NCBI GenBank assembly: GCA_951406725.2
Contig: OX597820.1
Coordinates: 123,938,001-124,002,000, forward strand
Length of the DNA stretch: 64,000 bases
Source of the DNA: Octopus vulgaris
Taxonomy: Eukaryota
Direction of reading: 5' to 3'
Notes under the pieces: generated by a model
The model's database searches: none
Told to the model about the DNA's origin: nothing
What the model saw: only the letters and a program-made list of their open reading frames with translations
Made by a program: the position numbers and the translations under genes
Shown: positions 13,161 to 60,702 of the stretch, in pieces
How positions within the stretch are numbered: the first letter of the stretch is position 1
Layout of the letters: each line of letters starts with the position of its first letter

Positions 13161-13617
13161 GACACAGTATGTTTAGACTTGAGCAAATTCTCACCTTCCT
13201 TTAAACACCACGCGAATATAACTGTTACCATTATTCTGTGGAACTTTCGTTGAATTCCCACAAGTAATTTATATAGAGAAGAAAAATGTTACGTTGTTAA
13301 TAATTCGAAACACAGTGCATGTGGATATGTACACGTATAGATACATACGTTTCCATACATACATATACACTCACATACACTTACACTCATATATATATAT
13401 ATATATATATATATATATATATATATATATATATATATATATATATATATATATATATATGTATACATATATATAATCATAATTAGGGTTCAGCTAATTG
13501 AATTTAGAAATAGGATTTTAAAATTCCTTTTCTGCTACTATAATTATCTCCATGACGGTAAACATACTTTTTTACAAAATCAAAAAGAAAAACAATGAAT
13601 CAACACGACCAGGATTA

Positions 13618-13680
13618 ATTATATACGCTTTTCGAGATTAAAGGGATTTAAATTTTACTTACTTCTCACTTCAGTATAAT
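13618..13680 (-). ncRNA. Minimal type I hammerhead ribozyme (A9 mutated)
   Basis: AUUAUA CUGAAGU GAGA..UCUC GAAA AGCG UA UAUAAU: 6-bp stem I, 4-bp stem II. Confidence 0.6.
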
Positions 13681-14224
13681 ATTTCCAATTTGAAAGTACT
13701 AGGCTGAATATGCACACGATCGAGTGACATCATGTAAAAGATATCCAACCAACACTTCCAAAATTTACAGAGCCGAATGTGAATACATTATTCAACCTCA
13801 ATATCCATGTGTATGCTACGGGCAATACCTTAAAAACTGCAGTATTATATCAATTAATAATAGAAGGGTAACAATTTATTCATTAAATTAATCAATTTAT
13901 TAATCAATTAATTAATAAATTTACCAAGTAGATCGGTACGTTAAAATAACCTTTATAGGTTATAAATTAATGAATGAAATAATTAAGTTAATTAATTAAT
14001 TTTACCCTTCTATTATTAAATTAAAATTATAATTTACTCCATGATAGAATACTGCAGTTTTCTGCGGTATTGCTCGTAGCATACACATGGGTATTGAGTT
14101 TGAATATTGTATTCACATTCGGCTCTGTAAATTCTGGAAGTGTTGGTTGGATATCTGTTACATGATGTCACTCGACTGTGTGTATATTCAGCCGTAGCAC
14201 TTTCAAATTTTATAAATTGGAAAT

Positions 14225-14287
14225 ATTATACTGAAGAGAGAAGTGAGTAAAATTTAAATCCCTTTAATCTCGAAAAGCGTTTATTAT
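14225..14287 (+). ncRNA. Minimal type I hammerhead ribozyme
   Basis: AUUAUA CUGAAGA GAGA..UCUC GAAA AGCG UU UAUUAU; core intact, one stem I mismatch. Confidence 0.65.
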
Positions 14288-14709
14288 TAATCCTGGTCGT
14301 GTTGATTCATTGTATTTCTTTTTGACTTCGCAAAAAATTATGTTTACCGCCATGGAGATAATTATAGTAGCAGAAAAGGAATTTTTGACTCCTATTTCTA
14401 AATTCGGTATGTAGTGAAGCAGTTAGCTGAACCCTAATTATAATTAAGGGGATAGTTTTACCTAGAGAGATTATTTTAACGTACCAATCTAATTGGTAAG
14501 ATTATTAATTAATTAAATTAAAAAATTTCCTTCTCTATTATTAATCTGATATATATATATATATATATATATATATATATATATATATATATATATATAT
14601 ATATATATATATATATATATATATATATATATATATATACATATATATATATATATATATATATATATATATATATATATATATATATATATATATATAT
14701 ATATATATA

Positions 14710-15180
14710 ATTTAAAAACAGGATAATATCTTCAGAATAACGTATCAAGTAGTTAGCGTTGAAAACCTCATAAGAGAAAAACATCCACCAATTTTTCACT
14801 TAATTATGTTTAAATTATATAGAGGGCATTATTACACATAAATACCACACGCTAGGAGGGACTCCTATAAATCTTGAATCATGCTTGCACTGATGAGTAA
14901 AGAGAGCAGACCACTGCACCGATTACAAAATCACAGGTGATCTGCAGTTGAATTATGTTTTTAAATGACTTGCTTCGAGAGTTGCATCGGTACATGTTTA
15001 TTTATTTTAGTAGTTTGACTTTAAGAGTCCCTGCTAGCGTGTGGCATTATGTGTAATAGTGCCATGTATATAATATAAATAAATATATTTAAGTGAAAAA
15101 ATTGGTGGATTTTTCCCTTATGAGGTTTTTTAGGCTGCCTACTTGATAAATTCTTATAAAGATTTTATCCTATTTAAAAA
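14710..15180 (+). mobile_element. Fold-back element with ~155 bp inverted arms and an HHR in the spacer
   Basis: 14710-14865 vs 15026-15180 are diverged reverse complements; abuts (TA)n. Confidence 0.75.
14886..14946 (+). ncRNA. Type I hammerhead ribozyme (G12>A, probably inactive)
   Basis: UGCA CUGAUGA GUAA..UUAC AAAA UCAC AG GUGA UC UGCA: all three stems pair; GAAA reads AAAA. Confidence 0.7.
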
Positions 15181-59039: not shown

Positions 59040-59690
59040 GCAGAAGAATTTGTTAATTGGCAGTTTAGCTTAAAGGTAGAGCACTATAACCGGATATTCG
59101 AGGGGAGTGAGCTCGATCCTCATGGCTGGTTGCTGACAAAATTTTCTGCTTTTAAAAGGATTTTATCCTATATATATATGATTTTGATTTTGATTTTGAT
59201 TTTTCCAGTTTCAGCTAATGAGCTGTGGCCATGCTGGGGCACCGCTATTTGGTTTGCTACACGATTTTACCTCACGGATGCTTTTTAGCAAACGCCATCT
59301 GATGCATGAGAGAGTTCGATGCAGCTGCCCTCATCTGCACCTCCTGTCGTGAAGTTGGTTCATCCGGGACATATATATATATATATATACTGTTCAGTAT
59401 CTACGCGTTGACTATATATCTTTCTACTTGTTCTACAATACATTTCAACGCTTCAAAGACAAATTTATGTTTGTTTACATATGAAGTAATCTATATGAAA
59501 TCTAGCGCTCCTCGGTAACATTAGAACACAGAATTTGTTGGTCAGCAGTTGAGTTTATAGGTAGAGCAGTCTTATCGGATATCAGAGTTCGATCCTCACG
59601 GCTGGTTGCCGACAAATTTTATCCTCTATAAAGATACTGTTCAGTATTTACGCCTTGAAAATATATCAGTCTCCTTGTTCTAATATATAT
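59040..59690 (+). repeat. Two tandem diverged units with tRNA-like heads; the first is interrupted by an insertion (~59168-59385)
   Basis: A-box-like tagcttaaaggtagagc / gagtttataggtagagc and B-box-like gag(c/t)tcgatcc in both; shared downstream tactgttcagtat. Confidence 0.6.
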
Positions 59691-60347
59691 ATTAGGTGTA
59701 TTAGAAATTTTAGACGATTTAGGTGGTCTACCATTTTGAAGATTCACATTTTTATTCCTATATTTATCAAACTTTCATTCGCTTTGTGATCTCTATATTT
59801 ATCACGCATAACGTTTTACATGTAATCCTTATTTATACGTGACTTTTTATGAATTTTATATATTTTATATTCTTTTATATCTCTCCTACATACTTATGTA
59901 TGTTTGGTTTTATTCTTTATACCCTTGGAGAATCTTAACGCCTGCACATACAGGGTTTATGTTGATGTGTAAAAATATATATGATTCAATTACGTTGATT
60001 GTGTATCTTCATTTATGCGTTCGGGAATTTAGTTTACTGTCTAGGAGTTGCGATTTTATTTTCCTCTACTTTGTATTATATCGCATTAACTCTCTACGAC
60101 CACTCCGTAAATAGCCCATATATTCTATAACATATTTCCAAAACAGTGTATTTTCCAAATAGGAAAGAAAATAAGGAGAAACCAGACTATATCATTTGTT
60201 TTTCAAATATTTTCATTCATTGTTCATCACGTAAAGGATTGGTCAAATATTTATGTTTCTGCAACGTTTGACCATAACGTCCACGAATAAAGCAATGGGC
60301 GTCATGAAATTTACAACCATTCAAAACCTGATCCTTTACCGTATATA

Positions 60348-60520
60348 TTTTTTTCTTTTGCTCTTGTTTATAAGTTATTTATAAATTTAACCTTTAAAGG
60401 TATTTTTTAATACCTTTCGAAAATTTTTCGAAAAGACTTCTATCAATGGCCAGCATATTAAAAAATACCTTTAAAGGTTAAATTTATAAATAACTTATAA
60501 ACAAGGGCAAAATAAAAAAA
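60348..60520. repeat. Near-perfect hairpin, 65-bp arms
   Basis: 60348-60412 vs 60456-60520. Confidence 0.92.
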
Positions 60521-60629
60521 ATTATAATGCCAAATATGCCAAAAATGAACTTAAATCGTCAATAACCATATACTTCATCACTATATGCACGCGTCTCGAA
60601 GTAAGCCGACAGAAATATCTAAAAAAATT

Positions 60630-60702
60630 CCGTTATTATTATATCGGCCCCGATTTCAGAGTTAATTCATAAGAATATTTTCCTCATCAGCGATAAATAC
60701 GG
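60630..60702 (-). ncRNA. Type I hammerhead ribozyme (slightly decayed)
   Basis: CCGUAUUUAUCG CUGAUGA GGA..UCU GAAA UCGG GG CCGA UA|UAAUAAUAACGG. Confidence 0.75.

Follow-up and report, generated by a model that had tools for sequence, protein, structure and literature searches.

The window analyzed here is a stretch of 64,000 nucleotides of the Octopus vulgaris genome (contig OX597820.1, positions 123,938,001 to 124,002,000, contig C7 among our contigs), in which the original prediction had placed about 15 hammerhead ribozyme motifs at 16 sites, mostly in short elements mobilized by Penelope-like elements (PLEs) with their reverse transcriptase (RT) and GIY-YIG endonuclease (EN). When the genome (2.8 Gb, 227 contigs) was searched with each of these sites, 15 of the 16 fell in 12 repeat families with hammerhead folds, and hammerhead repeats are hereby confirmed as real and genome-wide. 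The exception was site 15604, a single-copy sequence that was rejected as a family member: the sole candidate in the genome was the site itself, and no relative occurred in 1.98 Mb of fetched loci. The window has a GC content of 25-40%, and (TA)n and (CA)n tracts are abundant throughout. It also holds the predicted remnant of a PLE with RT and GIY-YIG sequence. Families and hammerheads are named below by their window positions; ORF stands for open reading frame and pLTR for pseudo-long terminal repeat (LTR, long terminal repeat).

912..1968, minus strand: decayed PLE remnant with the C-terminal half of the RT, a CxxC linker and GIY-YIG, read from the translation
13473..13960, minus strand: family 14225, inverted arm, with hammerhead 13674 (A9U)
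13962..14527, plus strand: family 14225, direct arm, ORF-free unit of ~540 bp, with hammerhead 14231 (core intact, one stem I mismatch)
14690..14867, minus strand: family 14886, inverted arm without hammerhead
14866..15299, plus strand: family 14886, direct arm, ORF-free unit of ~497 bp, with hammerhead 14890 (G12A)
16610..16711, minus strand: family 16728, inverted arm that stops at the short 3' site
16712..16923, plus strand: family 16728, solo pLTR and tail of a coding PLE, with G3:C8 hammerhead 16735 (U4C in this copy)
17644..17759, minus strand: 5S rRNA copy (Rfam RF00001, 64.6 bits), head-to-head with the 17760 element
17760..17897, plus strand: family 17760, 3' end, with hammerhead 17760 (G12A, 5' strand of stem I lost)
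19284..19475, minus strand: family 19375, ~190 bp, with hammerhead-like fold 19406 (family-wide A6U)
26065..26449, plus strand: family 26270, old, inverted arm (26065-26169) and direct arm, with hammerhead 26282 (stem I broken)
35233..35573, plus strand: second copy of the 26270 element, in a 9.2-kb duplication, with hammerhead 35451
44133..44295, plus strand: family 44230, long arm 44133-44229 (minus) and short arm 44227-44295 (plus), with hammerhead 44230 (5' strand of stem I reduced to 3 nt)
44511-44590, minus strand: additional fragment of family 48073
45786..46192, minus strand: family 46068, young, ORF-free unit of 535 bp (0.76 unit present), with intact hammerhead 46150
46404..47081, minus strand: family 47214, long arm and GIY-YIG coding remnant, with A3:U8 hammerhead 46524 (A15.1U)
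47078..47297, plus strand: family 47214, short arm, with A3:U8 hammerhead 47219 (stem I broken)
48009..48205, plus strand: family 48073, pLTR of a coding PLE, with U4C-type hammerhead 48077 (G8A in this copy)
50477..50649, minus strand: decayed relative of family 17760, with core 50636
50681..51648, minus strand: family 50943, young, ORF-free unit of 507 bp (1.9 units), with intact hammerheads 51002 and 51507
60420..60788, minus strand: family 60630, ORF-free unit of ~476 bp, with hammerhead 60690 (stem I broken)
61632..61763, plus strand: decayed relative of family 26270, with core 61646

Profiles of the families gave 20 rows on the window, two of which were removed (a coreless arm and a cross-hit), leaving 18 core-bearing motifs, including three absent from the original prediction (35451, 50636, and 61646). 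Only 46150, 51002, and 51507 are intact. The core is mutated in 13674, 14890, 16735, 17760, 46524, and 48077, and stem I is damaged in 14231, 26282, 35451, 44230, 47219, and 60690. As most window copies have decayed by one or two damaging changes each, few complete motifs remain, one under a strict descriptor and three under a relaxed one. These numbers exceed the means for shuffled sequence (0.04 and 0.15-0.18, respectively). An Rfam scan of the window returned no hammerhead among the matches listed (150 of 164), and Rfam may leave such elements unflagged, while repeat pipelines may file them as unclassified short interspersed elements (SINEs) or unknowns.

Among the family copies, 185 of 285 matched the full type I descriptor; the opposite strand gave 1 match in 285, and shuffled sequences gave 10 in 5,700. 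This test took top-scoring copies from 11 families, with overlapping loci and the window's own copies counted in. Family 44230 scored 0 of 25 owing to the limit on stem III length and a palindrome-biased query, despite a full hammerhead fold seen on alignment and reading of its copies. The families are unrelated in sequence, as claimed: a pairwise comparison of 8 units yielded zero cross-matches.

The description of the window as dense applies to the genome at large, but not to the window as such. A family-independent descriptor found 3 motifs (2 insertions) in its 64 kb, and 14 motifs (7 insertions) in 20 blindly chosen stretches totaling 200 kb, drawn from contigs C1-C7 only, with a shuffle mean of 0.40. 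This like density rules out a hot spot. The profile-based count (18 in 64 kb versus 13 in 200 kb) is inflated, because the profiles were picked from this same window. By extrapolation, seven insertions in 200 kb would correspond to ~40,000-200,000 intact-motif insertions genome-wide (Poisson interval, for contigs C1-C7 only). If this is true, hammerhead insertions here would be among the densest reported, on the order of 100,000.

By column majority, 10 of the 12 families have a canonical or 3:8-covaried core (CUGANGA / GAAA / UH), with stems I, II, and III formed and stem I open, as type I requires. All four Watson-Crick 3:8 pairs are present: C:G in most families, G3:C8 in 23 of 24 copies of family 16728, A3:U8 in all 23 copies of family 47214, and U3:A8 in two loci (L463 and L470) elsewhere in the genome. 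No report of natural G3:C8 or A3:U8 cores was found in the literature searched; supplements may bear on this, and the work of Lunse et al. (treated in the review PMC6765202) may already list such 3:8 variants. U3:A8, A6C, and U4C are reported as natural variants, U4C being a weak one (PMC3088659). U3:A8 is the sole 3:8 variant reported in the consulted text of PMC4209133, and C3G/G8C is an engineered partial rescue (PMC11167929). The families with non-intact cores, 19375 (A6U in 23 of 24 copies) and 48073 (U4C in 24 of 24), are two among those with the most first-look candidates (107-4,677 per family, which are search matches and not copy numbers), and these substitutions suggest that cleavage may be absent in both. 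Among the core bases, position 7 varies most, and families 14225, 60630, and 26270 show compensatory stem changes common to 5-6 copies. Many of the hammerheads here exceed the minimal form: helix II is often lengthened by an insert of 18-48 nt, and stems III reach up to 5 bp.

Three of the 12 families were found to be ends of coding PLEs. In family 47214 (sites 46495 and 47214; 1,320 first-look candidates), 7 of 25 loci carry RT/GIY-YIG sequence immediately upstream, and L422 and L423 hold an RT plus GIY-YIG frame with a hammerhead-bearing pLTR. Family 16728 (1,109 candidates) has a fixed 5' end in 25 loci, save four that run into one common upstream sequence. A continuation is common to 9 of 19 pattern matches, the sequence extends for >1.2 kb further in 3 of 6 fetched loci, and the family leads into an RT/GIY-YIG frame in L475, L476, L478, and L487. 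The L487 frame comprises an RT and a GIY-YIG-like domain, and its 3' untranslated region (UTR) returns to the 16728 element in L160; an atlas placed its protein at 0.96 among HTH_animal/RVT_1 clusters, and BLASTP ties the endonuclease at an E value of 7e-7. Family 48073 (2,893 candidates) lies ahead of an RT/EN frame in L488 (tblastn E 5.7e-68), with internally deleted tandem units alongside the coding form in 4 of 6 fetched loci (L482 and L484-L486), and an inverted arm was absent from the 25 loci inspected. Pfam scores for the RT/GIY-YIG frames of all three families were below cut-off. Families 16728, 47214, and 48073 are therefore pLTRs or 3' ends of coding PLEs and fail independence from the coding element, and the runs into RT/EN frames overturn a view of 16728 and 48073 as independent SINE-like elements with fixed 5' ends. 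The original prediction had named derivation from coding PLEs as an outcome that would count against it, and for these three families this is what was found.

The fixed 5' end of family 16728 is preceded by a branch-point-like motif, a pyrimidine run, and AG (L141, L159, L160, and L476), suggesting that its short copies may derive from spliced RNA. A Penelope intron that ends at the hammerhead has been reported (PMC4209133).

Families 17760 (3,687 candidates, with a query that took in part of a 5S copy), 26270 (461), 44230 (107 and 156 with two queries), and 19375 (4,677) showed neither a full tandem unit nor a contiguous coding frame in the loci inspected. Of 13 loci from these four families that were extended, 12 gave no coding match up to 6 kb upstream; families 17760, 26270, and 44230 extend upstream for 0.5 to >1 kb as non-coding, microsatellite-rich sequence. 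The palindrome of family 44230 is the recurrent inversion junction of a longer element, which rules out a miniature inverted-repeat transposable element. At L418 (4750-6240, minus strand), a 19375 end is joined to an RT piece of a coding PLE in one insertion, possibly by a template switch between two RNAs; the inverted arm of this coding PLE terminates in a U3:A8 hammerhead, identified by eye.

The PLE remnant of the window (912-1968) shares 80% nucleotide identity with a young family with open frames of 775 aa (Pfam RVT_1 E 3.9e-10, GIY-YIG E 9e-6). In this young family (L344-L354), a 557-aa frame of no Pfam family lies upstream of the 775-aa RT/GIY-YIG frame, and the pLTR is ~1 kb long and microsatellite-rich, with no hammerhead under the descriptor used. 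As it also has no sequence match to the tandem units described below, a role as their partner is not supported.

Five families, in contrast to the three coding-PLE ends, consist of ORF-free units in direct tandem copies, each unit with one type I hammerhead. These are 46068 (535-bp unit, direct copies in 25 of 30 loci; 1,493 first-look candidates), 50943 (507 bp, 21 of 25; 957), 14886 (~497 bp, 13 of 25; 2,595), 60630 (~476 bp, 9 of 25; 2,569), and 14225 (~540 bp; 561), for which the case is weakest, with partial tandems in 3 of 25 loci. Unit lengths range over 476-545 bp, the longest ATG frames span 19-54 codons, GC contents are 0.29-0.33, and tblastn gave zero matches to PLE proteins. Families 46068 and 50943 are very young, their top matches being 98-100% identical. 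By structure, the five families would be non-LTR retrozymes. The idea of non-autonomous ribozyme elements moved by PLEs thus holds for them, but not for the three coding-PLE ends.

Two further observations concern tandem units. In family 46068, a 54-codon ATG frame starts a few bases past the long 3' end site and may be chance or a relic. A further tandem family was found blind at L455 (2097-4768), with a 359-bp unit, 7 hammerheads in head-to-head arrangement, and outer ends 47 bp apart within the unit.

Insertions of families 46068 and 50943 usually consist of head-to-head arms with their 3' ends outward, and nearly all lie in (TA)n. Their outer ends fall at two fixed sites within the unit, which are separated by 127 bp in 46068 and by 96 bp in 50943. 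We analyzed the ends of 50 loci, of which 2 were dropped at the locus edge, 12 were one-armed, and 36 were two-armed. Among the two-armed insertions, 29 paired a short with a long end, none paired short with short or long with long, and 7 had one end elsewhere; for independent ends with equal chances, 29 short/long pairs out of 29 would have odds of ~2e-9. The same asymmetry occurs in families 16728 (9 of 11) and 44230 (19 of 19), although only copies with a long direct arm could match those queries; in four older families, (TA)n matches made the end counts unusable. Nearly all outer ends are flanked by (TA)n, the target being microsatellite or AT-rich sequence, and arm junctions often overlap by 1-9 nt. 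Clustering of 5' truncations at the cleavage site was considered and rejected: no clear cluster was seen, with 3 of 44 within 14 nt of the site in 46068, and 5 of 40 in 50943 lying 7-11 nt downstream, at an AT-rich palindrome.

An inverted, 5'-truncated arm and a tail on one arm are likewise found in PLEs with an endonuclease (EN+ PLEs). In earlier descriptions, a PLE may or may not bear the tail on one inverted pLTR (PMC3846280; PMC8557442), and in vitro the tail lies between two RT start sites, both strands of an AT-rich target are cut, and insertion needs no ribozyme cleavage (PMC11167929). Judged from the insertion footprints, movement by PLE machinery is best supported here by the fact that ORF-free units carry a PLE tail. 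No report of such an end rule in PLEs or retrozymes, by twin priming or rolling-circle copying, was found in the literature searched.

The arrays also bear on the template that was copied. Units differ less within arrays (distance 0.006) than between arrays (0.013 and 0.011), and both arms carry one haplotype. Variants fixed in every covering unit numbered 40 across 46 loci, 35 of them subfamily variants and 5 array-private, the latter five on both arms. Opposite arms shared 0 variants in mirror register, versus 58 singletons absent from their mirror unit; another 32 singletons had no mirror unit. Fixation of 40 variants across whole arrays requires a bottleneck of a single unit, as re-copying of one unit-length RNA provides, and the data favor such re-copying. 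The RNA was possibly circular, the chance of a circular template being about even; a circle produced by hammerheads in tandem would be the least complicated template of this kind and has been proposed before (PMC4209133; PMC7229834).

Taking these results together, we are fairly confident that the hammerhead repeats are of two kinds, ends of coding PLEs and ORF-free tandem units, and that both were likely inserted by PLE RT and GIY-YIG at (TA)n. A PLE protein would bind the RNA tail between the two sites and nick both target strands. One complementary DNA (cDNA) would start at each edge of the tail, and the two cDNAs would meet at their 5' ends, leaving an inverted structure with the tail on one arm. 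In coding PLEs, starts in the tail near the 5' end of the RNA would yield the short solo pLTRs of 16728 and 48073, and truncation the short 3' ends of 47214. In the tandem families, the hammerheads would cut multimeric transcripts into unit-length RNA, which is probably circularized and would be copied repeatedly into arms of up to ~9 units. Some families may have lost cleavage and kept the fold as a passenger or as a binding site for protein. More tentatively, and with somewhat less than an even chance of being right in full, each young ORF-free insertion would come from a PLE dimer that primes both strands at the tail edges on one circular RNA, with two strand-displacing rolling-circle cDNAs meeting head-to-head; the genome would contain ~100,000 such hammerhead insertions, and the PLE lineages would have sampled all four 3:8 pairs as well as catalytically crippled cores.

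Several observations weigh against insertion of both kinds by PLE machinery from unit-length RNA. The per-family samples are the highest-scoring genome matches and no random draw of copies. Pfam recognized neither RT nor endonuclease in the L487 protein, and tandem units compared with 10 coding-PLE loci showed no match beyond microsatellites or a copy of their own family. Seven shared stem changes break pairs, five of them in the old family 26270; the predicted monomer folds of 46068 and 50943 would sequester the core; and of nine dimers of Xenopus retrozymes, one cleaved in vitro (bioRxiv 10.64898/2026.07.22.740005). As to the arrays, 17 variants occur in some units only, and the L025 array mixes two haplotypes as a mosaic. 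Singletons may have arisen by mutation after insertion or by errors of assembly, which would blunt the mirror test, and array uniformity could stem from polishing or gene conversion.

The alternative that survives best, which we nonetheless consider unlikely, is that all families are pLTR or UTR fragments of coding PLEs, the tandem units being deleted derivatives of linear multimeric transcripts, with no circle involved. Three of the 12 families are indeed coding-PLE termini, the deleted tandem forms of 48073 stand beside its coding form, the long non-coding sequence upstream of 17760, 26270, and 44230 resembles a PLE UTR, and insertion in vitro is independent of cleavage (PMC11167929). However, each 535- or 507-bp unit leads straight into the next, for up to ~9 units in a row and free of coding sequence throughout, the whole-array fixation needs its single-unit bottleneck, and a search up to 6 kb upstream revealed no coding sequence in 12 of the 13 extended loci.

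Quite improbable, in our view, is local growth of the arrays as satellites, by unequal exchange or slippage after a short PLE insertion, with the inverted arm formed by self-priming fold-back (PMC3846280). Local duplication would fit variants shared periodically within single arms (L439 units 2, 4, and 6; L426 units 1 and 4; L428 units 4 and 7), and the common junction overlaps are in line with it. Fold-back, however, predicts identical 3' ends and junction points, whereas unlike 3' ends were seen in all 29 classifiable insertions and unlike junction points in most, and multimeric arms occur on both sides at many dispersed young loci.

That the motifs are chance matches, or SINEs mobilized by long interspersed elements, is scarcely credible: most window copies miss the strict descriptor, site 15604 is unsupported, and 48073 lacks an inverted arm, but chance is refuted for 12 families, and the excess of descriptor matches over shuffled sequence, 3:8 covariation, the tail asymmetry, and the tie of 48073 to a PLE frame all speak against this reading.

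The window holds further features beside the hammerhead families. A full-length 5S rRNA copy is joined head-to-head to a 17760 element in 2 of 26 loci (window 17644-17897 and L291 1350-1800), and these have different junctions, which rules out a recurrent 5S-hammerhead element. In L291, the inverted and direct arms enclose the 5S copy, and a 7-nt stretch is shared at the junction, as a template jump in a two-primer insertion would leave. The 3' ends of many dispersed 5S copies (L287-L313) abut the same SINE-like repeats. A tandem duplication of 9.2 kb at ~99% identity (24741-33771 and 33909-42981), with a gap of 100 N at 33809-33908, is possibly an assembly artifact or two haplotypes. A high-copy SINE-like repeat of ~185-235 bp, at times tandem and without hammerhead, lies at 5567-5733, 23862-24277, 27091-27327, 36291-36527, and 51836-52067. 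The short frames at 7710-8195, 19451-19801, and 29598-29924 resemble Tc1/mariner transposase remnants by their motifs, although HTH_SB at E 0.057 was the sole Pfam match. Ten frames of the window were submitted to Pfam, and no PLE domain was found among them; the PLE remnant was recognized from its translation and its intact relatives.

No report of cephalopod hammerheads was found in the literature searched, on which supplements may bear, and a 2026 annotation of octopus repeats lists active PLEs and many unclassified SINEs, with ribozymes unmentioned in its main text (PMC13282606). The idea of many hammerhead or retrozyme families is already published (PMC7229834; bioRxiv 10.64898/2026.07.22.740005). 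The non-LTR retrozymes of these two papers resemble our tandem families in having ORF-free tandem units of low GC with one type I hammerhead each, in occurring as several unrelated families per genome together with PLEs, and in their proposed mobilization by PLEs via circular RNA. Circular RNA expressed from them is known in coral, mussel, and axolotl (PMC7229834), and an origin from pLTRs has been reported (bioRxiv 10.64898/2026.07.22.740005). Units measure 476-545 bp here, 150-450 bp in PMC7229834, and 51-972 bp in bioRxiv 10.64898/2026.07.22.740005. Head-to-head arrays with two fixed end sites in (TA)n, as seen here, were not found reported for retrozymes in the text of those papers.

Many unrelated families of minimal hammerheads per genome, tied to PLEs, have also been described (PMC4209133). 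These known minimal hammerheads are similar in being mostly dispersed single motifs with an extra base after A9, a palindromic stem III, and a U3:A8 variant. In contrast, the octopus families include high-copy ones linked with coding PLEs in which G3:C8 or A3:U8 is fixed, families among those with the most candidates with A6U or U4C fixed, and long stems III and helix II inserts. Such natural high-copy families with G3:C8, A3:U8, U4C, or A6U form a panel on whether cleavage matters for spread.

The EN+ PLEs (PMC8557442; PMC3846280; PMC11167929) share with the elements described here an RT with C-terminal GIY-YIG, pLTRs, an inverted 5'-truncated arm, a tail on one arm, and (TA)n or AT-rich targets; their machinery acts in trans on pLTR-flanked sequences. 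Unlike the usual EN+ PLE, one young coding family here has the upstream 557-aa frame and no hammerhead by our descriptor. Described tails are 30-40 bp long and optional on one arm, whereas here their length is 127 bp in tandem family 46068, 96 bp in tandem family 50943, and ~65-75 bp in families 16728 and 44230, and their restriction to one arm is strict (29 of 29 classifiable insertions). The mobilizer of animal retrozymes and a circular RNA as their template are so far proposals, and the two very young families give direct footprints, naming exact RNAs, predicted cleavage sites, and start sites for tests. The class of element is already known; here it comes with unusually clear footprints of a likely mode of insertion, namely the end rule and the fixation of variants across whole arrays in ORF-free units.

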